A stretch of 64,000 nucleotides of DNA from an uncultured Vicinamibacteraceae bacterium (GTDB taxonomy: Bacteria; Acidobacteriota; Vicinamibacteria; Vicinamibacterales; UBA8438), in the NCBI GenBank assembly GCA_964591245.1, contig CAZPZZ010000005.1, forward strand, positions 653 through 64,652, written 5' to 3'. Below the pieces are notes generated by a model. That model was given only the letters and a program-made list of their open reading frames with translations. It did not search any database and had not been told where the DNA came from. The translations under genes and the position numbers were made by a program. Shown in pieces: positions 4,044 through 22,147 of the stretch (position 1 is the first letter of the stretch; the number at the start of each line of letters is the position of its first letter).

Positions 4044-4555
4044 GGTCATCACCCTCCCATCAGCCAGAGGAACTAAACGAGGCGCAGCGCGAGAAGCCCG
4101 TCGGCGATAGAAACCTGACCTACTACTGCATTATCTAATATTACAGATTTTCAAATTCTACTCGGCCACGCTAGTCGCGTCAACGTGATGAATTTCCCGG
4201 AAAATCGAAAATTTTCCCAAAACCCACACTGGTCTTCGGGGCGGGCGCTGATTATTGGTCCGGCGGGGCTGACACTCGTGAGCAGCGAGACGACGTTAGG
4301 CTTGTTTCCGGGCGACTGGGAGGCCAGTCGACTTGCGGCAACTGCGTGTCGTCGAGTGCGATGGTGCCGATCCAGGAGTGTCAGCGTTAGCACGTGCGAC
4401 AGCGCGAATGTTTGAGGCCACGGGGCGCTCCTCTTCTGATTGCTGGCGATATACCGGGTCCCCGGAACTCGACCGGCGAGGAAGACCGCCGTGTGGCGGT
4501 GTTCCCAGTGCCGGTGATGCTGGCACTCGCTCTCGATTTTCGTTGGAGCTTGTCG

Positions 4556-7217: not shown

Positions 7218-9608
7218 ATGCCGAACTTGAGACACCGGTTGAACCGTGCGGTCTTGCCAATCACCACATCTGCGATGGGTGCGGCAATTCTTTTCGTTTT
7301 TAGCACTCCAGTTACTTCCTCGGCCCAGGCGTCTGGACAGGACGCGCGTGCGCTTCTCGACCGGTACTGTGTCACCTGCCATAGCGATCGGCTAGAGACT
7401 GCCGGGCTCTCGCTAGAGCAGATCGACGTGAGCCATGTGGGGGAAGGCGCGGAGGTATGGGAGAAGGTGGTGCGGAAGCTTCGCACCGGCACCATGCCAC
7501 CGCCGACGAGGCCGCAGCCGTCCGCCGAGGATCGTACGGGGCTGGTGTCCTGGCTTGAAACGTCGCTCGACCAGACCGCGAGCGCGGCGCCCAATCCCGG
7601 TCGTACAGAAACGCTGCGCCGCCTGAACCGGACGGAGTATCAGAATGCCATTCGCGATCTGCTGGCGCTGGATGTCGATGCTCAGGCGCTGTTGCCTCCG
7701 GATGAGAGTGGGTATGGCTTCGACAATGTCAATGTCGGGGATCTGTCTCCGGCATTGCTAGACCGATATATTTCTGCAGCTCAGAAAATCAGTCGGTTGT
7801 CCGTGGGAACCACCCAGAGCACTGTGCAGAGTGAAGTGATTCGGGTTCCTCCCGATACGACGCAGGAGGAGCATGTCATTGGCCTGCCGTTGGGTACGCG
7901 GGGCGGGCTTACCGTACCGTACACATTTTCCCAGGACGGGGAGTACGAGATCCGACTTCATCTGGTGCGCCACCGTGCCCAGCTCGTCGGTTTACGCGAC
8001 GGTGCCGAGCATATGGCACAAATACTTCTCGATAAGATGCCGGTGGCCGATTTTACGGTGCAACGGATTGAAGGAGAGGACCCCACCGACAATCATCTGT
8101 TTGCCCGGGTAGCGGTGACCGCTGGTCCCCACGAAGTGGGCGCGACGTTTCTGAAGAATGCGTCGTCACTTATTGAGAGCGAGCGCCAACCCTTGCTGGC
8201 GCATTTCAATCAGACGCGTCATCCGCGACTGACACCGGCTATTTTCCAGCTGACGATTACGGGACCTTACGAGCCGCAAGGCGCGGACAACACGCCGAGC
8301 CGGCGTCGGCTCTTCGTATGCCATCCAGAGCGCGATGGAGGGACTCCCAGCATGGAGGCCGAGACCACCTGCGCGACTGAGATTCTGTCGAACCTCATGC
8401 GCCGGGCGTACCGCCGTCCGGTGACGGATGCGGATCTGGTTCGTCCGATGGCGTTCTATGAGGAGGCCCGGGCGGAGGCTGGTTTTGAAGCGGGTATTGG
8501 TCGCGCGTTGACCGCCGTGTTGATCAATCCAGCGTTCCTCTTCCGGGTCGAAAGTGATCCGGAAGGCCTTGCTCCAGGTTCACCCTATCGGATCAGCGAT
8601 CTGGAGCTGGCGTCTCGGTTGTCATTCTTTCTCTGGAGCAGTATCCCTGACGACGAGCTGCTTGACGTCGCCGTTCGTGGCGAACTGAGCCAGCCGGGGG
8701 AGCTCGAGCGGCAGGCGCGACGCATGCTCGCCGATTCGAGGTCAGTCAATTTGGCCAGTAACTTTGCGGGGCAATGGTTACTGCTACGTAATCTTTCTGC
8801 GTTTGAGCCAAATCCTCGTGTTTATCCTGATTTCGACGACAATCTTCGCCAGGCTTTCCGGCAGGAGACGGAACTCTTCTTCCAAAGCGTGCTCCGCGAA
8901 GACCGAAGTGTGCTTGAACTGCTGGACGCCGATTACACGTTTTTGAATGAGCGGCTTGCCAAGCATTACGGGATTCCTGGCATCTACGGCAGCCGATTCC
9001 GGCGCGTGGCGCTTGGAGAGGACAGCCAGCGAGGTGGCCTGCTCCGTCATGGGAGCGTCTTGTCTGTGACATCCTATGCGACGCGGACCTCACCGGTTAT
9101 TCGTGGAAAGTGGGTACTTGACAATATCTACGGAGCCCCTCCCCCGCCGCCTCCGGCCAACGTGCCCGTGTTGGAGGAAACCACGGTTGCGGCGAATCTT
9201 CCGATGCGTGAGCGGCTGAGTCAGCATCGCAGCAATCCGGCCTGTGCAAGCTGCCACAATGTTATTGACCCGGTGGGTTTTGCGCTGGAGAACTATGATG
9301 CCGTGGGGCGATGGCGGGATCATGGTGGCGATATCGGTCGGATGGATACGTCTGGTGGGCTTCCGGGAGTCGGTGTGTTCAACGGAATCAGCGGGTTGGA
9401 GGCTGGGTTGTTGAGTCGCCCAGAGCAGTTTGCCGGTCGAGTGACCGAAAAGTTGTTGACGTTCGCCCTTGGACGGGGCACCGATTACTATGACGCACCA
9501 GCCGTACGCTCGGTGTTGCGTAAGGCCGCGCCAGACGGCTACCGCTTTTCGTCGCTTATTATTGAAATCGTTAAAAGCGTTCCGTTTCAGATGAGGAACT
9601 CCATATGA
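7218..9608 (+). CDS. DUF1592/DUF1595/DUF1587/DUF1588/DUF1585-type multidomain protein with heme-c motif (copy 2)
   Basis: ATG at 7218 and a signal peptide. YCVTCHSDR, RTGTMPP and NPACASCHNVIDPVGFALENYD are collinear with copy 1 along the whole length. Confidence 0.85.
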   Translation: MPNLRHRLNRAVLPITTSAMGAAILFVFSTPVTSSAQASGQDARALLDRYCVTCHSDRLETAGLSLEQIDVSHVGEGAEVWEKVVRKLRTGTMPPPTRPQPSAEDRTGLVSWLETSLDQTASAAPNPGRTETLRRLNRTEYQNAIRDLLALDVDAQALLPPDESGYGFDNVNVGDLSPALLDRYISAAQKISRLSVGTTQSTVQSEVIRVPPDTTQEEHVIGLPLGTRGGLTVPYTFSQDGEYEIRLHLVRHRAQLVGLRDGAEHMAQILLDKMPVADFTVQRIEGEDPTDNHLFARVAVTAGPHEVGATFLKNASSLIESERQPLLAHFNQTRHPRLTPAIFQLTITGPYEPQGADNTPSRRRLFVCHPERDGGTPSMEAETTCATEILSNLMRRAYRRPVTDADLVRPMAFYEEARAEAGFEAGIGRALTAVLINPAFLFRVESDPEGLAPGSPYRISDLELASRLSFFLWSSIPDDELLDVAVRGELSQPGELERQARRMLADSRSVNLASNFAGQWLLLRNLSAFEPNPRVYPDFDDNLRQAFRQETELFFQSVLREDRSVLELLDADYTFLNERLAKHYGIPGIYGSRFRRVALGEDSQRGGLLRHGSVLSVTSYATRTSPVIRGKWVLDNIYGAPPPPPPANVPVLEETTVAANLPMRERLSQHRSNPACASCHNVIDPVGFALENYDAVGRWRDHGGDIGRMDTSGGLPGVGVFNGISGLEAGLLSRPEQFAGRVTEKLLTFALGRGTDYYDAPAVRSVLRKAAPDGYRFSSLIIEIVKSVPFQMRNSI

Positions 9609-10948
9609 TCATCACAAAGAAGGCACTGTCACGGCGAACGTTTCTGAAAGGCGCACAGGCCACTCTGGCCCTGCCGTTGCTCGATGCGATGGTTCCAGCT
9701 GCGACGGCCTTGGCCATGACGCCGGCCAAGGCGGTGCGCCGGCTCGGCTTCGTGTTCGTGCCGATGGGTTGTGATCACGCTCGGTGGACCCCGAAGGAGA
9801 GAGGGGCGCTCGGTCAGTTGACGCCCATTCTCAGCCCACTTGAGCCGGTCAAGGATCAGCTCACGGTCGTGACCAACATGGAGCTACAGAACTCCTACCC
9901 GGGAACGCACGACACCTCGAATTCAGGGTTCTTGAGCGCTGCGTATGCGAAACATACGGAGGGTTCCGACTATTTTCTCGGGACCACGTGTGACCAGGTC
10001 GCCGCCAAGCAGATGAGCCAGGACACGCAGTTGCCCTCGCTCGAACTGGCGATGGACCTGAATCCGTTGGCCGGCGTCTGTAACAACGGCTATGCCTGCG
10101 TGTATCAAAACTGTTTGTCATGGTCTTCTCCGACCACACCGTTGCCGGCTGAAGCTCACCCGCGTGTCGTGTTTGAGCGTTTGTTCGGGGAGGGAGGAAC
10201 GCCGGCAGAGCGGCGGAAGGCTCTCAAGGCCCGCGCGAGCTTGCTTGATTCCTTTAGCCACGACATTGCAAAGCTCAAGGGTGCGGTGAGCCCGGAAGAT
10301 CGCACTCGGGTCGACCAGTATCTTGACAGTATCCGAGAGGTCGAGCGGCAGATTCAGCGGGCGGAGGCTGGCGCTGAAGAGAACCCGCTCCCTGATTTGG
10401 ACCGACCCGTCGGAGTGCCGGTTGCATTTGCTGACCATGCCCGGCTCATGTTCGACCTGCAGTTGCTTGCATTCCAGGGAGACATCACGCGGGTGGTGAC
10501 CTTCCAGCTCACTCGCGAACTGAGTAATCGGACGTACCCGGAAATCGGGGTGCCCGATCCGCATCACCCGACAAGTCACCACGGCAATGACCCGGAAAAA
10601 CTAGCGAAGATCGCGAAAATCAACACATTCCACGTGTCGCTGTATGCCGAATTCCTGCAGAAGCTCCAGGCCACGCCAGAGGGTGATGGCACGCTACTGG
10701 ACAACACGGTGTACTTGTATGGCAGCGGGATGGGTAATCCGAGTCTGCACGATCATGTGAATCTGCCGATCATGGTTGCTGGCGGTGCTGCGACGGGCAT
10801 GAGAGGTGGACGACATATCAAGTACGAGAACGGTACGTCTCTTGGTAATCTGCATCTGACACTCCTCGACCGAGTCGGGGTCAAATTGGATGCCTTTGGC
10901 GATAGCAACGGCACGGTCGAGACGTTGTTCGACCGAGTTGACGTATAG
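9605..10948 (+). CDS. DUF1552 family protein, TAT-exported (copy 2)
   Basis: ATG at 9605 overlaps the upstream TGA (ATGA). Carries SRRTFLKGAQATLALPLLDAMVPA, DPHHPTSHHGNDPEK and LPIMVAGG. It is a paralog of the gene at 220..1578. Confidence 0.85.
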   Translation: MIITKKALSRRTFLKGAQATLALPLLDAMVPAATALAMTPAKAVRRLGFVFVPMGCDHARWTPKERGALGQLTPILSPLEPVKDQLTVVTNMELQNSYPGTHDTSNSGFLSAAYAKHTEGSDYFLGTTCDQVAAKQMSQDTQLPSLELAMDLNPLAGVCNNGYACVYQNCLSWSSPTTPLPAEAHPRVVFERLFGEGGTPAERRKALKARASLLDSFSHDIAKLKGAVSPEDRTRVDQYLDSIREVERQIQRAEAGAEENPLPDLDRPVGVPVAFADHARLMFDLQLLAFQGDITRVVTFQLTRELSNRTYPEIGVPDPHHPTSHHGNDPEKLAKIAKINTFHVSLYAEFLQKLQATPEGDGTLLDNTVYLYGSGMGNPSLHDHVNLPIMVAGGAATGMRGGRHIKYENGTSLGNLHLTLLDRVGVKLDAFGDSNGTVETLFDRVDV

Positions 10949-10987
10949 GCAGCTTTTTTGTTTGAGCCACGGTAGGGCGTTGTTTTA

Positions 10988-11026
10988 ATTGCCGGTCGCG
11001 TTGCACTCCACGGCGCGACCGGCAAT
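10988..11026. repeat. Perfect 13-bp inverted repeat (stem-loop) between DUF1552 copy 2 and the ankyrin gene
   Basis: ATTGCCGGTCGCG (10988-11000), a 13-nt loop, then CGCGACCGGCAAT (11014-11026). No U-tract follows on either strand. Confidence 0.6.
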
Positions 11027-11144
11027 CCTCGTACGCGCATGTAGTGAAATAAGGACGGATGGGTATTCAAGTTTCGGGGAGTTGTGGTCTGGGGCACGGG
11101 GAGAGCCGCAGATACACTCCGCGGACTACACCCCAGCGAAGAGG

Positions 11145-12689
11145 ATGATCATGAAGCTGAGACGAATTATCGGATTGTGCGTCCTCGTACTCGGAGTGAA
11201 TGGCTCAGGCGCCGCGGCCGTCGATGCGACGCTTGCGGATGCTGTTGAGCAACGGGATCACGCTCGTATCAAGGCATTGCTCAACACGGGGGTTGACGTC
11301 GACGTACCGCAGGTTGATGGTATGACGGCGCTGCACTGGGCGGTGTTCCAGGATGATGCGAAGATGGTGCGGGCGCTGGTCCACGCGGGCGCGAAGGTGG
11401 AGGTGAGTAACCTGTATGGGGTGTCGCCTCTCTCGGTGGCTGCGACCAACGGAAACGCGGAGATCATCAAGACCCTCCTTGAAGCCGGGGCCGATGCCAA
11501 TGCGTCGTTGCGTGGTGGGGAAACGGTGCTCATGACTGCGGCGCGCACCGGCAGCCTCGCTGCGGTCGATGCACTCATTACGGCCGGTGTCGATGTGAAT
11601 GTTGTGGAGAGCCGGGGCCAAACCGCACTGATGTGGGCTGCCGCCGAGGGGCATTCGGCTGTTGTCGACGCGCTCGTTGCGGCGGATGCTGATGTGCACG
11701 CGAAGCTCAGTTCTGGATTCTCTCCTTTGTTTTTTGCCGTTCGGGAAGGCCATATCGACGTCGTCCGCGTGTTGCTCGGGAAAGGCCTTGACGTGAATGG
11801 CGTGCTGGAACGTGTCAAGGATGGGCCGGATGTTACGCAAAACAACGCGACCTCCCGTCCGGTTGACGATGGGGTAAGCCCGTTGATCATGGCCGTGCGT
11901 AATGGTCATTTCGAGTTGGCTGTGGAGTTAATCAAAGAGGGCGCTGACCCAAACGATCGTCGTTCCGGTTTCTCTCCGCTACATACAATTTCGTGGGTAC
12001 GTAAACCGGATGAAAGCGATCGGGGCGATCCAGCGCCCATCGGGTCTGGCAATCTGACGAGTCTCGCGTTTGTGCGTGCCCTCGTTGCCCTCGGTGCGGA
12101 TCCGAACCTCCGATTGCACGAAGATGCGCCCCGGCAGCCCAATTCGGCGTCGAGCCTGGGTTCTGGCGGCGCCACGCCGTTCCTGTTGGCAGCCGACCGC
12201 GCAGATGCGACGTTGATGAAACAGCTACTAGACCTTGGTGCTGATCCATTCCTGGCGAATTTCGAAGGCAGCACACCATTGATGGCTGCCGCGGGCCTGG
12301 GGACGTCGGCACCGGAGGAAGAAGCCGGGACCGAGCCAGAGGCGCTGATTGCGACCAACTTCCTGCTTGATCTGGCTGCGGATGTCGATATGGTCAACGA
12401 GGTCGGGGATACAGCCATGCACGGCGCCGCTTACGGGAATTTCCCGACGGTCGTGCAACTGCTGTCCGACTATGGTGCAGACATCCAGGTGTGGAACCAG
12501 AAAAATGAGAAGGGCCGGACTCCTCTCTTCATTGCGGAGGGGTTCCGTGATGGTCTGCCCAGACAATCCCTGGCGACGATCGATGCGATCACCATCCTCA
12601 TGGACGGGGCTGGCGTGTCCACCGCCGGAGAGCGGCCGGTTCATCGGGACCAGTACGAGCGCGTCCCTGAGCCTCCGCGGCAGCGGTAA
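11145..12689 (+). CDS. Exported ankyrin-repeat protein
   Basis: MIMKLRRIIGLCVLVLGVNGSGAAA is a signal peptide. Many ANK units follow (DGMTALHWAV..., GVSPLSVAATNGNAEIIKTLLEAGADAN, GQTALMWAAAEGHSAVVDALV...). GAGG at 11141-11144 favours the ATG at 11151. The ATG at 11145 is in the same frame. Confidence 0.85.
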   Translation: MIMKLRRIIGLCVLVLGVNGSGAAAVDATLADAVEQRDHARIKALLNTGVDVDVPQVDGMTALHWAVFQDDAKMVRALVHAGAKVEVSNLYGVSPLSVAATNGNAEIIKTLLEAGADANASLRGGETVLMTAARTGSLAAVDALITAGVDVNVVESRGQTALMWAAAEGHSAVVDALVAADADVHAKLSSGFSPLFFAVREGHIDVVRVLLGKGLDVNGVLERVKDGPDVTQNNATSRPVDDGVSPLIMAVRNGHFELAVELIKEGADPNDRRSGFSPLHTISWVRKPDESDRGDPAPIGSGNLTSLAFVRALVALGADPNLRLHEDAPRQPNSASSLGSGGATPFLLAADRADATLMKQLLDLGADPFLANFEGSTPLMAAAGLGTSAPEEEAGTEPEALIATNFLLDLAADVDMVNEVGDTAMHGAAYGNFPTVVQLLSDYGADIQVWNQKNEKGRTPLFIAEGFRDGLPRQSLATIDAITILMDGAGVSTAGERPVHRDQYERVPEPPRQR

Positions 12690-12856
12690 CGGGTGGTGGC
12701 CCGTGGCGAGGTCCCCGGTCTTTCTACGGGGGGAAGCCCCGGGCCGAAACCGTCGGCGCGGCGTATTTGGAATGTGGTCTCAATGCATTGAAAAGGGTCG
12801 GCGCTTGAGAAAACCCTGACGACGCAACAAAACGTCTATATCAATCAGATACAGAA

Positions 12857-12894
12857 AACCTACAGGCTTAACAGCTTGTAGGTTTTTTTGTTTT
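12857..12894. terminator. Strong intrinsic terminator hairpin inside the AT-rich islet
   Basis: AACCTACAGGCT-TAAC-AGCTTGTAGGTT forms a 12-bp stem with one G.U pair. It is followed by TTTTTGTTTT on the plus strand and preceded by AAAA. Confidence 0.65.
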
Positions 12895-13062
12895 ATAGCC
12901 TTATTTTCAGAATTGTTTAACGCTTCTCTATTATCAGTAAAGAGTCCAAGACGTTTAATTGCTGGATGTTCCGTGCCAGATTTCGTTACGGCTTCTTTAT
13001 TGAAATCAAAGACTCGTCATGCTGCCTATTGCAGAAGCTCATAAAGTTCTCATCCCCGGTTA

Positions 13063-13437
13063 TTAGAGCACCCTATCTAGGTCTATCACACGTTTATCTC
13101 TCTGTTTTCTTCGCGCGCCTTCGAGACATTTAGTGAACTCGTTGTCACGCTGTTGGGTTTCCTTTGACTCCTCGACGTCTGGCAGCAGATTAGCCAGGCT
13201 GTTGGCAACCCTCTTATCATCCGTGGCTAGCCCTTCCGCGTTTCGACAGGTCTCGATAGCATCTCCGTATTCCCCGAGATGGATCTGGATCTGCGCTACA
13301 GTTACAACCGCATCTAGTTTGTCTGGAACTAAGGTGCTTACTTTGTGAAGAATGTCTAAGGCCTCGTCATAGCGGTTCAGCGATGCGAGTCTTTGAGCCT
13401 CCGCAAGAAATTCAATTGAATCTATGGGCGGTGACAT
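13063..13437 (-). CDS. Small TPR-like hypothetical protein encoded in the AT-rich islet
   Basis: 124-aa ORF with ATG at 13437. Helical-hairpin TPR-style segments are present (AEAQRLASLNRYDEALDILHKV; AQIQIHLGEYGDAIETCRNA). Its composition is very different from the flanking genes. I recognise no homolog. Confidence 0.45.
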   Translation of the reverse strand: MSPPIDSIEFLAEAQRLASLNRYDEALDILHKVSTLVPDKLDAVVTVAQIQIHLGEYGDAIETCRNAEGLATDDKRVANSLANLLPDVEESKETQQRDNEFTKCLEGARRKQRDKRVIDLDRVL

Positions 13438-13713
13438 CGCGGTGTGAATACTTTTGTATTTGACTCACTCTTTATTTTCTTAAATATTTTGCAATTGCGT
13501 TTAAGTTAAACACTAACGCCGAGCCCCGGTGGGCGCGGCATGGGTAACGCTAACGAGGGCCCGACGCCGTTCGCCGGTAACGCGCTAACCGCCCGCTCGC
13601 CCGCCATCCCCATCTCGTCGCGGGCGTGCGCGTGACCCACTGACCCGAAGCCTCCACGGCGCGCCGCGTGGAACAGCCTCGAGCCAGAGGGCGACCGTCA
13701 AATTATTGACAAT

Positions 13714-14095
13714 TCAGGAGCCAGCGGACTCGCCGAAGATGGTGACCCCGTCGGGATTCTCACCAACGTCTGCGACATTTGCCCGTATCCATGCCAGCGC
13801 CGCGATCTGATCGAGCGTGACGTAATCGTCCGACGCCCCGTGGTCCGACTCAGCCCGCAGCGATGCGGGCGCGAGATAGTCCAAGGCACCAAGGCGGGAG
13901 TTGATGGTCACCAAAACCACACCACGGCCAGCCAGGGCTGCGCCGCCATAGGCAATATCCGCGCTGTTACCTAGACCGAATCTCGCCATGGATCCACACC
14001 AATACCGGCACCAGAGCCCAGGAAACGGCTGCGGTCCAGGCGGTGAGGTAAAGACAGGCCCCTGGCATCGCCTCAACTCCGGCATCGAAGAAGCC
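13714..14095 (-). pseudogene. Type-B carboxylesterase remnant, frameshifted and truncated at both ends
   Basis: One frame reads ...ACLYLTAWTAAVSWALVPVLVWIHG (compare EDCLYLNVW...PVMVWIHGG). After a frameshift near 13990 the next frame reads ...GVVLVTINSRLGALDYL...DYVTLDQIAALAWIRANVADVGENPDGVTIFGESAGS, then stops right after the GESAG nucleophile elbow. The sequence downstream is not esterase-like. Confidence 0.7.
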
Positions 14096-14104
14096 AGCTT
14101 CTCA

Positions 14105-14132
14105 TTGACACCTTGATTACTTCCCGTATAAT
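14105..14132 (+). promoter_or_regulatory. Consensus sigma70 promoter for the repeat-protein gene
   Basis: TTGACA (14105-14110), a 16-nt spacer, then TATAAT (14127-14132). Both hexamers are perfect consensus. The element lies about 220 nt upstream of the ATG at 14351. Confidence 0.5.
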
Positions 14133-14350
14133 CAATCTGGGCGCTAGGTCAAGCCCATCCTTCCTTGCCTGATCGGCTATTCCCAGAGCCGGTTGAACGA
14201 TTTTTTGTGTTCGTGTAACTGGGGATTAGTGCTTACAGAAGCTGCCAGCGCGCGGCATTGTGCACCGGCGACGGGATGCCCGGAGTCGGCTACCTCTCCG
14301 TTTGCGCTCTCTTCAGCGCTTCATGCCAGGCGTTTATTCAAGGAGTAGTT

Positions 14351-17101
14351 ATGCAGAGACATCGAGGACGGCTAGCCCGTACGACCACCTCGCGTCCACC
14401 GTTTGCGCTGAGTCTGGGCCTCCTGCTTGGGTTGTTTGCAGTTGTAGGTGCCGTGACCGCCGAACTTCAAGCAGGAAACACCACGTATCAGTGGCATGGC
14501 GAGCTGGTCTCGCTCAGTGATGACCCCGATGGGATGGCCCTCACGGCGACGTCGCGAGTGGTGACAGCCTCCGCACTCGCACACGTGGAGGGATTGAACG
14601 CGGGCGATCCGATCGTGATTACCTGGTCAGGTTTTGGAGACCGTGCGAACGGTATCCGATCTATTGCAGCCGATGATGGGTCCGGCTTTAGCCCGCGCGA
14701 CAGCTTCCGTCTGCGGGCGACCTTCGTTGAAGCAGATCTTCCCGGTCAACAGCTCACGTTCAAGGTGACCGGGAGCGCACGGCATTTGGCGTCGGTTCAT
14801 CGTTTGACCAGCGGGCTCTGGGCAACGGTGACCTCGCCACACCGGCCATCGCATGGGCCGACCGCGGTCCAGGCGGTTGAGGCGTATGCGCCGACCGGTG
14901 GTCAGCGCCAGGCGCGGATGGGGCCACCGGATGGTGCAACGTATCAGTGGAGCGGCGAACTGGTGTCCCTTGTTGAGGCTCATGGGAGACCGGCGTTGTG
15001 GCTCAAATCGAGAATGGCTTCAGCAGATGCGCTTGGCGGCGCCAATCTGAGTGCTGGAGATCCTATTCTGATTACCTGGTCTGGCTACAACCGGTCTGCT
15101 GATAGCATTCGCCGCGTCGCACGGGACGACGGGTCAGGCTTGTGGGGGAGTGACCGGCTCTTGCTGCGTGCGGCCTTTGTCGGTGTGTCCGGTAGTTATC
15201 TGACATATGTCGTACAGCCATCGGAGGAGAGCCTCGACACGCTGCGTTCGCTGCGTCGTGGGATGTGGGCGACCGGGACGTCACCCCATCGTCCGGATGC
15301 GGAGATGGCCGAGGTGGTCGACGTCGCGGCTTTTACCTCGACGATGGCAAGAGCTGGAGGTGCGGCACCTGCCGCTGGCGATACGTATCGCTGGGCGACC
15401 GAACTCGTTTCGCTCGACGACAGCGGTCGGGCGCTCTCCGTTCGTTCACGTCTCGTGACGTCCGAGGCACGAGCGGCGGTCGACGGTCTCGAGTCTGGTG
15501 ACGCCATTCTCATCACCTGGTCTGGCTCAAAGAGCTGGGCGGATGGTATTCGCTCCGTTTCGGCGGACGACCGCTCTGGCTTCTGGGGCAGTGACCGGTT
15601 GCTTCTGAAGGCGACGTTTGTCGCCGCTGACCCGGCACGTCAATACATGACATTTACGGTGCCGCCACCGGCGGCTGGGGTTGGCACGTTGCGCGGCCTC
15701 GCGCGTGGAGCCTGGGCTACGCTGACGTCACCCCATCGTCCAGACGCTGCCATGCCGGTTGCTGGTGTCGAGAGCTTCGTGGCCACGCCAGCCCAGCGTG
15801 CGGGGGTGAGTCCGACAGCTGATGACCAGTATCAGTGGCACGCTGAACTCGTGGCGCTGAACCAGGCGGATCGCAAGCTGACGGTCAAAGCACGTGTGGT
15901 CTCACAGCGAGGCTTGGCGGGCGCCGCCGATCTGCAGGAGGGTGACTCGATCATCATTGCTTGGTCTGGAGTCGAGGACCGAGCGGATGGAATTCGCGCC
16001 GTCGCACGTAACGATGGTTCTGGCTTCTGGGGAAGCGACCGACTGCTGCTGACGGCTGAGTTCGAGGCACTTACGGGTCAATATTTGACCTTTACGGTGA
16101 CGCCGCCGCAGGAGAGTCTGGCCATGGTTCAGACCCTGACGCAGGGCAGCTGGGCGACGTTGTCGAGTCCGCATCTTCCAAGTGCAGGTATGCCGGTGAC
16201 GGGCGTCCAGGCCTACGCCGGACAGACGATGCCGAGGCAGGCTGGACCGAGCCCTCGGGCAGGTGAACTCTATAGCTGGAACGGTGAGCTGGTATCGCTG
16301 AGCCAGGGTGAGAGCACCGGCACATTGACCGTCACGTCGCGAATCGTGACCCCGGAAGGTCTGTCTGGAGCTGCCGATCTCGACTCGGGCGATCCGATAC
16401 TTATCACCTGGTCTGGCTTCGAGAATCGAGCCAGCGGCATTCGTGCGGTGGCGAGAGACAACGGCTCTGGCCTTTGGGGCAGTGATCGTTTCTTGCTCCA
16501 GGCCGAGTTCGTCAAAATCGAGGGCCAGTTCCTGACGTTTACGGTACGGCCGCCATCCGACAGCCTTGCTGCAGTACGCACACTGACGGCTGGAGCGTGG
16601 ACGACGGTGATGTCACGCCACCGGCCATCAGAAGACGTCGATGCTGTCGAGTCTGTTGATGCGTTCGATCCAGCTCGCCGAGCGAAGCGGTATGTCTGGG
16701 GCGGTGAACTTCTCTCTGTTGACGAAGCCAGTCGGACGCTGGAAGTATCTGCACCCGTTGAGGAACACGTCTTCCGCTATGCCGACCGGTTTACCGAGGG
16801 TGATGAGGTCATGTTGATTTGGGCGCCTCGCCCCGGTGGTTACGAGGTGCAGGGCATCCGTTACCTGGAGCTTCGTGCAGAGTCCAGTCTGCGTCACGGG
16901 TACGTGTTGCCGGCGACCTTTGTTGCTGCGGATGAGGAGAACGGTCGGATGAGGTTGCAGGCGACGGTGCCGCAACGGACGGTCGAGCGACTCTCGGGAC
17001 TGGAGCCTGGTTCGTGGATTGAGGTGACCTCGTTATTCGATCAGTCGGGAGAGACCGCGGCCGTTTTGGGAGTGCGAGCATTAACCCATGAGGTGAACTA
17101 A
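14351..17101 (+). CDS. Secreted protein made of six tandem ~145-aa repeats of an unrecognised domain
   Basis: AGGAG at 14341-14345 is followed by ATG at 14351. MQRHRGRLARTTTSRPPFALSLGLLLGLFAVVGAVTA is a signal peptide. See the repeat feature at 14483..17098. Confidence 0.85.
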   Translation: MQRHRGRLARTTTSRPPFALSLGLLLGLFAVVGAVTAELQAGNTTYQWHGELVSLSDDPDGMALTATSRVVTASALAHVEGLNAGDPIVITWSGFGDRANGIRSIAADDGSGFSPRDSFRLRATFVEADLPGQQLTFKVTGSARHLASVHRLTSGLWATVTSPHRPSHGPTAVQAVEAYAPTGGQRQARMGPPDGATYQWSGELVSLVEAHGRPALWLKSRMASADALGGANLSAGDPILITWSGYNRSADSIRRVARDDGSGLWGSDRLLLRAAFVGVSGSYLTYVVQPSEESLDTLRSLRRGMWATGTSPHRPDAEMAEVVDVAAFTSTMARAGGAAPAAGDTYRWATELVSLDDSGRALSVRSRLVTSEARAAVDGLESGDAILITWSGSKSWADGIRSVSADDRSGFWGSDRLLLKATFVAADPARQYMTFTVPPPAAGVGTLRGLARGAWATLTSPHRPDAAMPVAGVESFVATPAQRAGVSPTADDQYQWHAELVALNQADRKLTVKARVVSQRGLAGAADLQEGDSIIIAWSGVEDRADGIRAVARNDGSGFWGSDRLLLTAEFEALTGQYLTFTVTPPQESLAMVQTLTQGSWATLSSPHLPSAGMPVTGVQAYAGQTMPRQAGPSPRAGELYSWNGELVSLSQGESTGTLTVTSRIVTPEGLSGAADLDSGDPILITWSGFENRASGIRAVARDNGSGLWGSDRFLLQAEFVKIEGQFLTFTVRPPSDSLAAVRTLTAGAWTTVMSRHRPSEDVDAVESVDAFDPARRAKRYVWGGELLSVDEASRTLEVSAPVEEHVFRYADRFTEGDEVMLIWAPRPGGYEVQGIRYLELRAESSLRHGYVLPATFVAADEENGRMRLQATVPQRTVERLSGLEPGSWIEVTSLFDQSGETAAVLGVRALTHEVN
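14483..17098 (+). repeat. In-frame tandem coding repeats (units start at 14483, 14939, 15383, 15827, 16268 and ~16688)
   Basis: Unit spacings are 456, 444, 444, 441 and 420 nt. The recurrent motifs are Y-x-W-x-x-E-L-V-S-L, GD-x-I-x-ITWSG, GIR-x-V-x-x-D(D/N)GSG(F/L)WGSDR(L/F)LL, LTF-x-V and G-x-WAT-x-TSPHRP. The sixth unit is divergent. Confidence 0.85.
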
Positions 17102-17147
17102 ACGGCGGAGGGGCTTCGTCCCCTGATAGGTCGCGAGAATCGCGTAT

Positions 17148-17192
17148 GGGCGAGGGGCGGACCACCGGGTCCATCCTTCGCCCTTTTCTTTT
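17148..17192 (+). terminator. Rho-independent terminator after the repeat-protein gene
   Basis: GGGCGAGGGGCGGACC-ACCG-GGTCCATCCTTCGCCC (13 of 16 positions paired) is followed by TTTTCTTTT. Confidence 0.6.
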
Positions 17193-17201
17193 GTCCTGAG
17201 G

Positions 17202-18101
17202 TTAACGAATGAATGTACCGTTCTGCAGTTCGGCAAACGCCTGACGTAGCTCTTCCTGCGTATTCATCACAATCGGGCCGCGCCACGCGACCGGCTCTGC
17301 GAACGGATGGCCTGAAATGAGCAGAAACTTGATTCCTTCTGGACCGGTCTGCACGACGATTTCATCCCCACCATCGAATAGGATGAGTGACCGATTCATC
17401 ACCGGAGCGGCCGATGCGTGCCCACGTGATCCCAGCTCTTCTGTGGCGATCGGGCGAGGCCTTGAGGCATCGCGAAAGTGGCCAGTCCCTGCGAACACGT
17501 AGGCGAATGCGTGTCGTGGAGACTCAACGGGCAGCCGTTTCGTCGTCTCTGGTGGGACCCAGACGTCGAGATATCGAGGGTCGGCGGCAATGCCATCGAC
17601 CGGGCCTGTCTGTCCCCAATAACTTCCGCATATGATTCGGATGCGGGTTCCGTCGTCGTCGACGACAGAGGGAATCTCGTGTGCGGTGACGTCCTGGTAC
17701 CTCGGTGCCGTCATCTTTAAGGATGACGGAAGATTGGCCCAGAGCTGGAAGCCGTGCATCCGACCTCGGGCATCCCCTTGTGGCATTTCTTGATGCAAGA
17801 TACCGCGTCCTGCCGTCATCCACTGAACATCTCCATTGTTCAGCATTCCACGGTTGCCGAGACTGTCTCCATGAGCAATTGAGCCTGCGAGAACATACGT
17901 GATCGTTTCGATTCCTCGATGCGGGTGCCACGGAAACCCTTTCTGGTAATCATTAGGGTCTTCGTTCCGGAAATCATCCAGGAGTAGAAACGGATCGAAC
18001 TCGTGCGCACCGTGAAATCCGAACGCCCGGTGGAGTTTCACACCTGCGCCCTCGAGCGCCGGTTGCGATTGGCTTACGTGCTTGATTGGCCGAATGGACA
18101 T
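17202..18101 (-). CDS. Pirin family protein
   Basis: FPWHPHRGIETITYVLAGSIAHGDSLGN and QLWANLP are bicupin pirin signatures. ATG at 18101 (MSIRPIKHV...). The ORF track starts at an upstream TTG at 18128. Confidence 0.9.
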   Translation of the reverse strand: MSIRPIKHVSQSQPALEGAGVKLHRAFGFHGAHEFDPFLLLDDFRNEDPNDYQKGFPWHPHRGIETITYVLAGSIAHGDSLGNRGMLNNGDVQWMTAGRGILHQEMPQGDARGRMHGFQLWANLPSSLKMTAPRYQDVTAHEIPSVVDDDGTRIRIICGSYWGQTGPVDGIAADPRYLDVWVPPETTKRLPVESPRHAFAYVFAGTGHFRDASRPRPIATEELGSRGHASAAPVMNRSLILFDGGDEIVVQTGPEGIKFLLISGHPFAEPVAWRGPIVMNTQEELRQAFAELQNGTFIR

Positions 18102-18812
18102 GGGTGCGTTCACTTGGGTCAAGGTCAACGGCTACACGTCGCGCTGTCGCCGTACCTCAATGACGGGTATTTCCACGGCGCGTCGGCGAGGTCTGGCCGG
18201 TCCTTGTGTCGTCGACGTGTAACGCCGCCACTCTCATGTTGGGCGAGCCACGGGTCCGCAGCCGTGGTGGGGCCCGTGCGTGTGGAACACACGGGCCAGT
18301 GGTCCCAAGGAACACCCAGACATTCTGGACCTTACTACGGAAAAATCCAAAACTTGAAATCGTGTGTTCCTATACAGGACACGTCAGGGGATATGCGGGA
18401 GAGTGGCATCGTGTGTACGCCCGTTATAAGAGGTTTTGAAGATTCTTCTTAAGCCACGTGTTTGTATTTAGTTAAGTCGTATTTCTTAAAATTTTTGGCT
18501 ATCACGTGCCTTGGTACCGAGCTTGCCAATCTTCGTTGTGTGTGACTTTGAGTGTTCCCGCCGGATCTACAGGGTGGACGGAACATGACTATGCGCAGCA
18601 ATCGTTTGATCGGCAGGGTTGGTCCCGCACCGTGGAACGCGCGCGCACCCTGGTTACGCGCTGTCGTGCTCAGGGCAGAACGTATGACCTGTTCTCGGAG
18701 GGTGTGGAATCGATGTGTTCGATCTACCTGCCATCGGTGTCACTGAGATGTCCTCGTCTGGGGGCTCCGCGGTCGGCCTATTTGGTCTGTTCTTAGCGAT
18801 TAGAGCGGCGTC

Positions 18813-20774
18813 ATGACTGAGGTCTCACTGTCTCGCATCGGGCGGGTGTATGTGCTTGCCGTGCTGGCGACCGGGGCGGGGCTCATCGTGAGTTCGATGC
18901 TCCAGGTTGCGGCCGCGGACATCGGGACCTCCTGGATGGTGGTTGTTGGTTTGTCCCTGCTGTGCGCGCCATTTTCGCTCAGGATTCCATCGATGCGGGC
19001 GACGGTCACGGTGACCGAAGCGTTCGTCTTTGCGTCTGCGTTACTCTTCGGGCCACCGGTGGCGACTGTCATCGTTGCATTCGACGGGCTCGTCCTGTCG
19101 CTACGGGCCGAGCGGCGGAGCGTCGATCGTGTGGGTTTCAACATGGCGGAGCCCGCGATCTCCGTCTGGATGTCATCTCACCTGTTCTATGTGGTGTCCG
19201 GGGTGGAGCCCTTGGCGGGGCGGGCCGTTGAACTCACACCACTGCTGTTGCCGTTGCTGTTGATGATTGCTTCCTACTTCTTGCTCAACGGGGTGTTGAG
19301 CCTGACGGCACTGTGGTTTGAAACCCACGTCAATCTCTACGAGTTCTTGAAACAGCAGCTTCCGCACGTTGCCATCAATTGCTTCACGAGCTGCTGTTGC
19401 ATTGTCTTACTTGTGCTGAACCTGCCCGACTTGTCTCTGGAAGTGTTGGGGATGTTCGTGCCGCTGCTGGTCTTGACGTACGCCTCGTCCAAACTGTCCA
19501 CCGCAAGGGTGGAAGAAGCGAATAGGCATTTGGGCGAGCTGAGCCGGCTCTACCTCACGACTATCGAGGCGCTGGCATTGGCAATCGACGCAAAAGACCT
19601 GGTCACCAGTGGACACATCCGGCGTGTACAGAGTCATTCAGTCGCGGTGGCGCGCAAACTCGGTGTCACTGATGCAAGAGAGATCAAGGCAATCGAAGCG
19701 TCAGCGTTGCTGCATGATCTCGGTAAGCTGGCCATTCCAGAGCACGTGTTGAACAAGCCGGGCAAACTTACCGAGTCCGAGTTTGAACAGATGAAATCCC
19801 ACGCGAAGATTGGGGCTGACATCTTGTCCACGATAGATTTTCCCTACCCTGTTGAGCCAATCGTGCGGCACCACCACGAGACCTGGGATGGTCAGGGTTA
19901 TCCGGATGGGCTTGTGGGCGACGCGATTCCCTTAGGTGCACGGATCTTGAGTGTCGTGGATTGTTTCGATGCTTTAACGTCGGATCGTCCCTATCGCCGG
20001 GCTATGGACAAGGAACACGCGCTGGCTGTGATTACGGCGCGGCGGGGTGGGCACTACGATCCGCGAGTAGTCGACGTATTCGTGGAACTCATCGAGGACT
20101 TGCTCAACCCAGCGGTTGCAAGTGCGCACCACGACTGCCTGGTGGCCGCGAAAGAGGCGGAGGTCCCCAAGGTGGTGGCACCGGAGCAGGCGGTTCGTCC
20201 CACTATGTTGAATGACGCGGTGCCTATGGCATCACATACTCATGTGGGAGAACGACGGGCTCACTCGGGCGACCTCGTGCTCCCCAACTTTGTGGAGGTG
20301 GCGCGATACGCCGAATCGGTGATGCCCGGGGCCTTGTGTGTGGTCTACCACCATCAGCAGGAACTGGCCAGACTTACCGTGTCGCACGTGTCGATTCCAG
20401 AGTATGAGTTTGTGTTGCGCGACTTCTGCGTACCGCTGGGTGACTGTTTGACCGGATGGGTGGGCGCCAATCGTGAAATTGTCTACAACTCAGATCCGAC
20501 CCTCGATTTCGGGGACCTTGCCCCGGCATTCACTCCACGTTTTCGTAGCTGTTTCTCAGTGCCGGTGATACGAGATGGTGAGCTTGTTGGCGTGCTCAGC
20601 GTCTATGGACAGGAGCCGCAAGGACTCACCCGCCAGCGGGCTGATGACATCGTGCAGCTCGTGGACGCTGGTTTCACGGGTAGGTTGCAAGATCCCGGTG
20701 TGACGCAGTTGAAAGAGGTGGAAGATCTACCTACCTCGACGAAGAAAGCACGTAGCAGCGCGATCGTGGTCTAG
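18813..20774 (+). CDS. Membrane-anchored HD-GYP phosphodiesterase with C-terminal GAF-like domain
   Basis: The N-terminus is a multi-TM region of ~230 aa. The HD-GYP core carries ALLHDLGKLAIP and HHHETWDGQGYPDGL. The C-terminal segment LTGWVGANREIVYNSDP...FSVPVIRDGELVGVLSVYG is GAF-like. Confidence 0.85.
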   Translation: MTEVSLSRIGRVYVLAVLATGAGLIVSSMLQVAAADIGTSWMVVVGLSLLCAPFSLRIPSMRATVTVTEAFVFASALLFGPPVATVIVAFDGLVLSLRAERRSVDRVGFNMAEPAISVWMSSHLFYVVSGVEPLAGRAVELTPLLLPLLLMIASYFLLNGVLSLTALWFETHVNLYEFLKQQLPHVAINCFTSCCCIVLLVLNLPDLSLEVLGMFVPLLVLTYASSKLSTARVEEANRHLGELSRLYLTTIEALALAIDAKDLVTSGHIRRVQSHSVAVARKLGVTDAREIKAIEASALLHDLGKLAIPEHVLNKPGKLTESEFEQMKSHAKIGADILSTIDFPYPVEPIVRHHHETWDGQGYPDGLVGDAIPLGARILSVVDCFDALTSDRPYRRAMDKEHALAVITARRGGHYDPRVVDVFVELIEDLLNPAVASAHHDCLVAAKEAEVPKVVAPEQAVRPTMLNDAVPMASHTHVGERRAHSGDLVLPNFVEVARYAESVMPGALCVVYHHQQELARLTVSHVSIPEYEFVLRDFCVPLGDCLTGWVGANREIVYNSDPTLDFGDLAPAFTPRFRSCFSVPVIRDGELVGVLSVYGQEPQGLTRQRADDIVQLVDAGFTGRLQDPGVTQLKEVEDLPTSTKKARSSAIVV

Positions 20775-20835: not shown

Positions 20836-21669
20836 TTACGGATCACGAGGGTGCGCGGCGCTCCATTCCCGGGTAAGGCGTTGGGCTTCGGCGAATTCGT
20901 CTGGACTCATCGTGCTCGCAACCCGGTCACGCCCACGGATGACCAGTTCTCGGTTGCGATCCGCATTCTGTCTACCCGCGGCTGAGAGGCTAAACCACAC
21001 GTACGCGGCCACGTAGTCCTGCGGAACGCCGACACCGGCTTCGTACATCACCCCCAGGTTCCACTGCGCATCGGCATGTCCCTGCTCGGCGGCCGACCGG
21101 TACCAGCGCATCGCTTGGATGTCGTTTTGTGGGAGACCACGACCGATGTCATACAGGACTCCGAGGTTGTATTGCGCTACGTCGTATCCCTGCTCGGCGG
21201 CCAGTTGATACCACCGTGCGGCTTCGATGTCGTCTAGCGGCACGCCCCGACCGGTCGCGTATCTGTTCCCGAGGGTGAACTGCGCCACGGCACCTCCCTG
21301 CTCGGCTGCGAGTCGATACCACCGTACGGCTTCGGCATGATCCCGCGGAACGCCGAATCCGAACTGGTAAAAATCACCAAGTCTGCTCTGTGCGCTGGCA
21401 TGCCCCTGTTCGGCCGCTAGCCGATACCAGCGAGCCGCTTCCGTATCTCCGATTGTGTCTACTTCGACGTCTTGACTATCAATGAGGTGGATTTCATCGA
21501 GGCAGCCAACGTCGTGCATGCACCCAAACTCGTACTGGGCTTCGGCATTGCCCTGCTGCGCCGATTCCCGTAACGCATCGATCTGCGGTGTTTGCGCCGG
21601 TAGTGGCCTACTCAACATGAACACGATGAGTACGGTGACGCCGGTCGTTTTGCGTACGCCACGGGTCAT
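20836..21669 (-). CDS. Sel1-repeat (SLR/TPR family) exported protein
   Basis: Repeated units read AARWYRLAAEQGHASAQSRLGDFYQFGFGVPRDHAEA. ATG at 21669 is preceded by AGGAG..AAGAGG. The signal peptide is MTRGVRKTTGVTVLIVFMLSRPLPAQ. Confidence 0.85.
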   Translation of the reverse strand: MTRGVRKTTGVTVLIVFMLSRPLPAQTPQIDALRESAQQGNAEAQYEFGCMHDVGCLDEIHLIDSQDVEVDTIGDTEAARWYRLAAEQGHASAQSRLGDFYQFGFGVPRDHAEAVRWYRLAAEQGGAVAQFTLGNRYATGRGVPLDDIEAARWYQLAAEQGYDVAQYNLGVLYDIGRGLPQNDIQAMRWYRSAAEQGHADAQWNLGVMYEAGVGVPQDYVAAYVWFSLSAAGRQNADRNRELVIRGRDRVASTMSPDEFAEAQRLTREWSAAHPRDP

Positions 21670-22147
21670 GGGTCCTCTTGACTCCTGGGATGGTTCATAC
21701 ACGCCAACATCCTACTGTCCGCGCGCGGTAGGAACAATACGGCCCCAGAATGGTGTTGGCCGCTGACGCGATGCTGACACGGGCCGCCGGCCGGTTTTGC
21801 CTCACTGCTCTCGATGGCGATGGCCCATCCATGGCTCTCTGTTTATAGGACAGGCGTTGTGAAAGAGGCACGCAACCAAGGCTAGCGGTCGCAGGCTTGT
21901 CGGATCGTACCAGTTGACAAATGTTTCACGCGACAGTGATGAGCACGTGCGTCGTACGAAGCGTAGTTGGCACACGGTCTTGATATTTGGGGTGGAGGAG
22001 ACTCTAATACTGCCCTATCGCTGTCAGAAAACATTGCTAGGCGTTGACACCGAACTTATGTGCCCAGGAGAGACCTTCTTTGAAGTATGACTGTCGGGCG
22101 AATGCCTGGGTGGCGTGTGGATCCCGGCCGGCCTTGGGGCAGTCGCC

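Follow-up and report, generated by a model that had tools for sequence, protein, structure and literature searches.

The window analysed here is a 64,000-nucleotide (nt) stretch of contig CAZPZZ010000005.1 (GenBank assembly GCA_964591245.1) from an uncultured Vicinamibacteraceae bacterium. The gene in question, at 14351-17101 on its forward strand, encodes a protein of 916 amino acids (aa) that consists, behind a signal-peptide-like N-terminus, of six tandem units of a single domain. This domain represents a new protein family almost confined to Acidobacteriota, and the genes that encode its arrays share a 5' leader by which the ribosome-binding site appears to be hidden; the product may be a multivalent binding protein of the periplasm. 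The open reading frame spans 14258-17101 from a TTG start and was read from the internal ATG at 14351, since this codon follows a Shine-Dalgarno (SD) sequence and agrees with the N-termini of homologues, the same 916-aa product having been proposed in an earlier note made from the sequence alone. That note had also given the gene its own consensus promoter and terminator, and both are present (Table 1). The -35 and -10 hexamers are kept upstream of 18 array orthologues, with a spacer of variable length (leader alignment), and folding showed a hairpin at 17148-17183 with a U-run to 17192, directly 3' of the stop codon, which a simple terminator pattern scan had overlooked. The gene that follows, for a pirin (17202-18128, reverse strand), is convergent with the array gene, which is monocistronic.

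Unit limits were set with a hidden Markov model (HMM) built from the six proposed units, and the resulting boundaries coincide exactly with the starts and periods in the earlier note, which had described a signal peptide followed only by six units of about 145 aa carrying the same ordered motifs, the last of them strongly diverged. Every motif it quoted is found in the unit alignment (YxWxGELVSL, GDxIxITWSG, GIR..DDGSGFWGSDRLLL, LTFxVxP and GxWATxTSPHRP), and n-, h- and c-regions resembling those of a signal peptide can be read ahead of unit 1. Identity to unit 1 is 45-51% for units 2-5 and 28% for unit 6, and comparison of unit with unit by BLASTP gives E values of 1e-33 to 1e-51 within units 1-5 and of 2e-11 to 8e-3 against unit 6; the similarity between units is far above chance. 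The repetition is seen at the protein level only, Tandem Repeats Finder detecting no DNA-level repeat in the array. Nucleotide identity between units is low (43-60%), synonymous divergence (dS) is saturated and the ratio of nonsynonymous to synonymous divergence (dN/dS) is 0.18-0.58 where computable, which marks the array as old and maintained by purifying selection rather than as a recent duplication or an assembly artefact. The earlier note had reached the same view, which is further borne out by 107 homologues with three to nine units and by a terminal unit that is positionally orthologous across species.

An AlphaFold2 model of unit 3, based on an alignment of 27 diverse units, is confident and beta-rich, with a mean predicted local distance difference test (pLDDT) score of 89.4, a predicted template modelling (pTM) score of 0.82 and the element order beta-beta-alpha-beta-beta occurring twice. 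The two halves are related to each other in sequence: when they are compared by hhalign, the probability is 95.4% (E = 1.8e-8) for the array units and, independently, 97.8% (E = 1e-12, 55 columns) for the family of single-unit proteins, with YxWxGELVSLD..LTV...GDxIxITW of the first half aligned to FxLxAxFVxxD..LTF...GxWxTVTS of the second. Each domain of about 130 residues is thus an ancient internal duplication of a beta-beta-alpha-beta-beta module of about 65 residues. The 'two-lobed module' that had been surmised from the motifs proves to be a tandem duplication of this element, of which the protein contains twelve.

The full-length model, built with 20 homologues in the alignment, contains six folded units with pLDDT 70-90, separated by linkers below 50, and has a pTM of 0.42. 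Stretches with pLDDT below 50 lie at residues 181-194, 331-342, 479-490 and 625-634, units 5 and 6 being split only by a dip of three residues. The linkers of units 1-5 are disordered Ala/Pro/Gly/Arg stretches of 10-14 residues. The model indicates an architecture of beads on a string with a tighter junction between units 5 and 6.

The domain could not be assigned to a described family, as the earlier note had suspected. Neither the whole protein nor a single unit has an at-threshold match in Pfam-A 2025 or NCBIfam 20.0; the sole match of the whole protein, to YuA_Gp49, scores 15.6 bits where 27 are required and was disregarded, and the single unit has none. When 55 divergent single-unit relatives were scanned one by one, they gave scattered sub-threshold matches, those listed having E no better than 2.8e-4, the most recurrent being to CusF_Ec (PF11604) and LSM12_LSM (6 of the 55 relatives each), followed by assorted domains of oligonucleotide/oligosaccharide-binding (OB) type. 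Sequence and profile searches of Protein Data Bank (PDB) chains returned nothing better than E = 0.04, at which level RGM, IsdH and PCF11 are chance matches, and nothing relevant was found in the published literature. Foldseek with the unit 3 model gave no match at E <= 1e-3 in the PDB or BFVD. Its best template modelling (TM) score normalised on the query is 0.33, and its top neighbours (TM 0.25-0.33, root-mean-square deviation 7-10 Å) are small closed beta-barrels, namely riboflavin synthase, the 1B barrel of the Upf1/Sen1 helicases and the flavin adenine dinucleotide (FAD)-binding domains of reductases of the siderophore-interacting and FNR types. Nothing in BFVD, a library of viral structures, fell below E = 0.15, so no phage connection is indicated. 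A swapped-hairpin barrel of the AbrB/MraZ kind was considered for the doubled topology and rejected, there being no AbrB, MazE or MraZ among the listed Foldseek neighbours. With the full-length model the neighbours, all weak, are riboflavin synthase, LumP, HIN-200 domains, single-stranded DNA-binding proteins (SSBs) with two OB folds, Pot1 and SilF. The domain is a new family that has no close relative in structure, whether among solved structures or among predicted viral ones. Proteins built as exported tandem arrays of small beta domains are in themselves well known.

The 107 homologues were recovered by a word-indexed search, are all unnamed or 'hypothetical' and come from metagenome-assembled genomes (MAGs) of Acidobacteriota. 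Most have five or six units, in an array that always begins just past the signal peptide and extends to the C-terminus. The set grew considerably when 1.84 billion representative proteins, clustered at 50% identity, were searched exhaustively with a profile, which gave 313 clusters at E <= 1e-3, of which 217 at E <= 1e-10; across the whole family the number of units ranges from one to nine. The bulk of the diversity lies in proteins of about 170-180 aa that consist of a signal peptide and one unit, and a further architecture of about 270-320 aa joins one unit to a C-terminal extension. One protein of 1276 aa with nine weak stretches (P0212) was rejected, its matches being false and due to fibronectin-type repeats that contain a GNTITITW-like motif. 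When species-representative genomes were scanned, the family appeared in Vicinamibacterales and other Vicinamibacteria, Terriglobia, other Acidobacteriota and one Gemmatimonadaceae MAG, and also in one MAG labelled Rhodospirillaceae and another labelled Bifidobacterium; the second of these, at least, seems to be mis-binned. The family is almost confined to Acidobacteriota, and mainly to Vicinamibacterales.

Two types of unit can be told apart within the arrays. Unit 6 of the window protein is 27-31% identical to its own units 1-5 versus 48-62% to the terminal units of other arrays, and so represents a distinct B-type that is positionally orthologous across species. The internal A-type units are 45-60% identical across species and their positional signal is weak, with a trend for first units to resemble first units and for the last A-type unit to resemble the last A-type unit. 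The B-type end is missing in some array subfamilies. This type also occurs alone, in proteins of about 195 aa, and forms the N-terminal domain of the extended proteins (P0165, P0173, P0176, P0185 and P0170/P0258 among others), in which 20 of 25 extensions are an unannotated domain of about 95 residues with a conserved Cys pair (GxW..C..GxC..F..G). Three further extensions are cytochrome c' (PF01322, E = 2e-6), two with an intact CxxCH and one truncated; the two intact fusions are named 'cytochrome c556' by the Joint Genome Institute.

The array genes are further distinguished by their 5' leader. Between the window and the array locus L001, its closest orthologue, near-identity covers the promoter and some 65 nt at the 5' end of the transcript, the rest of the leader having diverged, and an nhmmer model built from these two copies found a promoter/leader element of about 95 nt upstream of 18 of the 20 array genes (E 1e-27 to 5e-6; window 14105-14206, L001 7639-7734, and L002, L003 and L020-L035). 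The same model found the element in none of the small-relative loci searched (L005-L019 and L033). The element contains two hairpins, P1 and P2, on either side of a pyrimidine block that reads AUCCCUCCAGGC across orthologues, or AUCCUUCCUUGCC in the window. The 22-nt core of P2 is the same in L001 save for two degenerate positions, and in the window P2 is followed by a T-run that gives it a terminator-like shape. Three leader hairpins are 94% paired, versus 28-55% with the partners slid, and covariation is limited. When whole orthologue leaders of 225-361 nt were folded, the pyrimidine block paired with the SD region, 200-330 nt downstream, in 17 of 17 minimum-free-energy folds, and it was the top-ranked partner of the SD sequence in 16 of the 17 leaders. 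Block and SD sequence change together between lineages (UCCUUCCUUG/CAAGGAG, CCCUUCUCUUGA/UUGAGGGAGGG and CCCUCC/GGAGGG). Rfam 15 gave no match at E <= 1 on either strand of 13900-17400. The leader thus appears, from these predicted folds, to mask the ribosome-binding site and is a candidate for a new translational-control element.

Table 1. Features of the array gene and its leader, in coordinates of the window
Feature	Position	Strand	Basis
Sigma-70-type promoter, TTGACA-16 nt-TATAAT	14105..14132	+	12/12 consensus positions
Hairpin P1 (GGGC-N10-GCCC) with invariant GGUCAAGCCC, putative, at leader start	14139..14156	+	alignment; paired in 97% of cells
Pyrimidine block AUCCUUCCUUGCC, candidate anti-SD	14157..14169	+	conserved; predicted SD partner
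Hairpin P2 (AUCGGCU-AUUCCCAG-AGCCGGU), putative	14170..14206	+	terminator-like scan; paired in 98% of cells
SD sequence AAGGAG	14340..14345	+	read from sequence; 5 nt before start codon
Coding sequence, 916 aa + stop	14351..17101	+	open reading frame list; 107 homologues, E 0 to 7.5e-81
Signal-peptide-like N-terminus, aa 1-37	14351..14461	+	Arg-rich n-region, core F18-V35, VTA before EL; read from sequence
Unit 1, A-type	14483..14938	+	HMM envelope aa 45-196; unit alignment
Unit 2, A-type	14939..15382	+	HMM envelope aa 197-344; unit alignment
Unit 3, A-type (modelled singly)	15383..15826	+	HMM envelope aa 345-492; alignment; AlphaFold2 pLDDT 89.4, pTM 0.82
Unit 4, A-type	15827..16267	+	HMM envelope aa 493-639; unit alignment
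Unit 5, A-type, short junction to unit 6	16268..16687	+	HMM envelope aa 640-780; only residues 775-777 with pLDDT <50
Unit 6, B-type, terminal; APVEEHVFRY .. LIWAP .. IRYLE	16688..17098	+	HMM envelope aa 780-916; 27-31% identity to units 1-5
Intrinsic terminator: long G+C-rich hairpin, then UUUUCUUUU	17148..17192	+	sequence; fold z = -2.0

The N-terminus of the array protein is predicted to direct export as a Sec-type signal peptide. The full-length model places a low-confidence helix at residues 22-41, an equivalent leader peptide of about 35-45 aa precedes the first unit in all family members, and relatives show classical AxA signal peptidase sites. The protein has a mass of about 95 kDa, and its mature form has an isoelectric point (pI) of 5.3 and a net charge of about -21, with no Cys and 24 Trp. 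Neither the Pfam/NCBIfam scan nor inspection of the sequence revealed a lipobox, PEP-CTERM, SLH or other anchoring signal or a hydrophobic C-terminus in the window protein.

Genomic context separates the small relatives from the arrays. Genes of the HSP20 family (PF00011), detected with an HMM built from the HSP20 genes of L005/L006 and L007, lie within ~4 kb at 13 of 16 loci with one- or two-unit proteins versus none of 20 array loci (Fisher p = 2.4e-7), and the difference persists when the loci are collapsed to lineages (7/9 versus 0/6, p = 0.007). HSP20 is followed on the same strand, after at most about 70 nt, by the unit gene in L005/L006 (L005 6486-7522) and in L007 (6450-7927), the latter also carrying DegP-like proteases, an M48 protease and a second HSP20, and in L010 (313-2650) HSP20 lies on either side of the unit gene; further linked loci are L009, L011, L012, L014, L017-L019 and L033. 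Genes for J-domain proteins (DnaJ) and a diadenylate cyclase also occur in the HSP20-linked clusters.

The surroundings of the arrays are conserved only among close relatives. Synteny with an ABC-2 transporter and a protein with pyrroloquinoline quinone (PQQ) repeats is seen within Vicinamibacterales only, and a conserved array operon was sought and rejected, there being none beyond close relatives and the pirin gene being common to the window and L001 only. The pirins of the window and of L001 (10985-11917) share 76% identity and the array proteins of the two loci only 56%, which means that the array is changing markedly faster than the gene next to it.

One B-type single gene has a counterpart of its setting in the window. 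It lies in L039 (516-6606) directly after a trio of genes for a DUF1592-family (PSD) protein, a DUF1552 (HXXSHH) protein and an ankyrin protein with a signal peptide, which are 50%, 47% and 39% identical to a trio at 7218-12689 of the window, upstream of the array, and its unit matches window unit 6 specifically (E = 5e-13). Trio and array are separated in the window by a 1.66-kb insert that comprises an AT-rich islet, a small gene for a tetratricopeptide repeat (TPR) protein and a carboxylesterase fragment. The 124-aa TPR gene (13063-13437, reverse strand) is flanked by stretches of low G+C content (0.385-0.395 at 12800-13100 and 0.415 at 13300-13500, against a window background of about 0.59). 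The carboxylesterase fragment (13714-14085, reverse strand, 123 aa) covers only profile positions 116-194 of 515 and is therefore probably a pseudogene remnant. These features had led the earlier note to suggest an accessory locus. Islet and fragment are real, but the array gene is single-copy and vertically conserved in many Vicinamibacterales, with a conserved promoter and leader, and so is not obviously a mobile accessory gene; the accessory reading is weakly supported.

Other genes of the window were noted in passing. It holds two paralogous pairs of DUF1592/1588/1585/1587/1595 and DUF1552 genes in opposite orientation (220-4052, reverse strand, and 7218-10948, forward strand), the proteins of the first kind having a cytochrome-c-like N-terminus. 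Eukaryotic-like repeat proteins cluster around the array, namely the ankyrin protein with a signal peptide (10989-12689), the TPR protein and a Sel1 protein (20836-21702); sets of such proteins are over-represented in host-associated bacteria such as sponge symbionts. Two genes downstream of the array, at 18813-20774 on the forward strand, lies the gene for a membrane protein of 653 aa that carries HD-GYP-type HD (HD_5) and GAF domains and is possibly a cyclic-di-GMP phosphodiesterase.

The favoured view is that the array protein is a periplasmic multivalent binding protein, possibly stress-protective and under translational control, a reading that is plausible though held at somewhat short of probable. 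The protein would be released into the periplasm as a flexible multivalent binding scaffold, in which the A-type units would serve as repeated binding modules and the conserved B-type end as a separate docking or partner module, with copy number setting avidity or reach. Transcription would proceed from the perfect consensus promoter and translation would be gated by the leader, its pyrimidine block lying on the SD sequence; because the two are predicted to pair, opening of the leader would call for a trans-acting or physical signal. The class of ligand would most likely be stress-damaged or non-native envelope components, because one- and two-unit A-type relatives sit in HSP20/J-domain clusters, and the protein would then act as an ATP-independent holdase-like or protective factor. 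A wider proposal is that Acidobacteriota and Gemmatimonadota possess, in this domain, a hitherto unrecognised class of stress-protective, holdase-like modules that work outside the cytoplasm and without ATP, with one-unit forms as envelope-side partners of cytoplasmic small heat-shock proteins (sHSPs) and DnaJ and with arrays of 5-9 units as high-avidity forms gated by a long-range anti-SD leader; this we consider unlikely.

Several observations weigh against a periplasmic, stress-protective and translationally controlled binding protein. The hydrophobic core of about 18 residues at the N-terminus could also serve as a signal anchor, and the conserved residues of the units are mainly Trp, Gly and hydrophobic residues typical of a structural core, from which no binding site can be named. 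HSP20 is absent from all 20 array loci, that of the window included, and the array contexts are not conserved past close relatives, four distant orthologues having unrelated neighbours; the link to stress is therefore transferred from paralogous small relatives. Even among these, L013, L015, L016, L036 and L037 have no link to HSP20. The B-type singles also stand in unrelated contexts, the two stand-alone genes of L038 (6001-12400) and L040 (6001-12594) lying directly upstream of pgpA, followed by GH88, cinA, plsY and gpsA, in an arrangement conserved between the two genomes. As to the leader, the pairing in the window is weak (-8.1 kcal/mol, with a summed pairing probability of 3.25 versus 3.07 for the next-best partner) and the window leader alone folds no better than shuffled sequences (z = -0.32), so that the case for it rests on comparison between orthologues. 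The anti-SD duplex of Vicinamibacterales, at -14 to -19 kcal/mol, is too stable for a simple RNA thermometer.

The alternative that survives best, though improbable, is that of an abundant structural protein of the envelope, of S-layer type, in which an acidic, Cys-free coat or spacer would use its barrel beads as a lattice or ruler and would be made from a stable and highly expressed mRNA. Very abundant envelope proteins, S-layer proteins and OmpA among them, typically have mRNAs with long structured leaders, and the array gene combines a perfect promoter with a long (200-340 nt), structured and conserved leader, in a monocistronic unit with its own terminator. The size, acidity and lack of Cys of the product are likewise in keeping with such a role, and a variable number of units would suit the setting of length. 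The predicted linkers are, however, disordered and flexible, and at a pTM of 0.42 no fixed geometry between units is predicted; the protein also differs from S-layer proteins in that no SLH, PEP-CTERM, lipobox or other anchor was found in it. A Sec signal alone cannot carry it past the outer membrane, and one-unit relatives of about 14 kDa exist that are tied to heat-shock genes.

A glycan- or cell-wall-binding adhesin or matrix protein, in which tandem barrels would bind a polymer such as peptidoglycan or exopolysaccharide by avidity, is distinctly improbable. The tandem layout, variable copy number and flexible linkers would fit it, as would Trp-rich modules with invariant Trp residues and 24 Trp in all, and fold neighbours of OB type. 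Against it, no carbohydrate- or cell-wall-binding family was matched in the Pfam and NCBIfam scans of the protein, a single unit and the 55 relatives, no glycan-related genes are consistently nearby, and the conserved Trp lies in strand motifs typical of a hydrophobic core. Least likely of all is a periplasmic carrier of metal or small ligands, with a CusF/SilF-like or flavin-barrel pocket in each lobe and the array as a high-capacity buffer or relay, possibly to redox partners: the sub-threshold CusF_Ec matches (best E = 9.4e-4), the SilF and flavin-barrel neighbours, the invariant His of SPH(R/W)P in the A-type units of arrays and the fusion of some B-type units to cytochrome c' speak for it, but this His is kept neither in B-type nor in single-unit members, none of the alignments A2, A3, A4 and A8 has a conserved Met or Cys column, the window protein has no Cys, query-normalised TM does not exceed 0.33 and no metal-resistance genes recur in the contexts examined.

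Acidobacteriota, and especially Vicinamibacterales, are among the most abundant bacteria of soil, and their envelope biology is almost unknown. The present results turn a 'hypothetical protein' into a defined, lineage-restricted domain family with a fold model, limits for half-modules, units and A- and B-types, a stress association for its one-unit forms and a leader RNA for its arrays. If the protein is a protective chaperone, a new family would be added to the few ATP-independent chaperones of the periplasm; otherwise, a Pfam entry for the family and an Rfam entry for the leader are still warranted.

Among known systems, CusF and SilF (PF11604) resemble the new family in being small exported beta-barrel modules, and SilF is the only PDB chain with TM above 0.5 (0.52), a value that holds only when normalised on the 80-residue target. 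The listed scores of 14.2 and 15.8 bits are, however, below the gathering score of 27, the Met/His/Trp site of CusF for Cu(I)/Ag(I) is not conserved, and the unit of the new family consists of two homologous lobes and is arrayed up to nine times. Homology to CusF was rejected, since hhalign of either half against a reconstructed CusF sequence gave a probability of at most 9% and the metal ligands are absent.

The best and most consistent Foldseek neighbours are the flavin barrels of riboflavin synthase, lumazine protein and FNR-type reductases (SCOP b.43, RIFT), with a probability of 0.95-0.97. Riboflavin synthase is itself an internal duplication of two homologous barrels, and an internal pseudo-twofold duplication is likewise present in the new family, which alone does not establish membership. 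Riboflavin synthase matches the full-length model with E = 9.4e-4 and a probability of 0.96 at a target-normalised TM of 0.25; for the unit, E is 8e-3 to 0.3 and query TM remains below the fold level of 0.5. There is no sequence signal between the two, and those proteins are cytoplasmic flavoenzymes, whereas the new protein is of exported type and without a cofactor motif. Tandem OB-fold proteins such as S1, HIN-200 and the SSBs of Thermus and Deinococcus are also strings of small beta-barrels that act multivalently, and gave weak Foldseek and profile matches. They are cytoplasmic or nuclear, basic and nucleic-acid-binding, unlike the acidic, exported-type array protein.

Functional analogues may be sought among small stress-induced periplasmic proteins such as the YgiW/YdeI BOF family, OsmY/BON and Spy. 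These have no sequence or profile relationship to the new family and are known neither as arrays of 5-9 units nor from beside cytoplasmic sHSP genes, yet the one-unit relatives are likewise signal-peptide proteins of about 14 kDa, in stress clusters with HSP20, DnaJ, DegP and M48. For the leader, the closest parallels are SD-sequestering leaders such as that of rpoS and RNA thermometers. The pairing predicted here differs from these in its long range, in a duplex too stable for a simple thermometer and in the lack of an Rfam match, and resembles them in that the SD sequence has a predicted upstream partner, the pyrimidine block, with which it co-varies between lineages.

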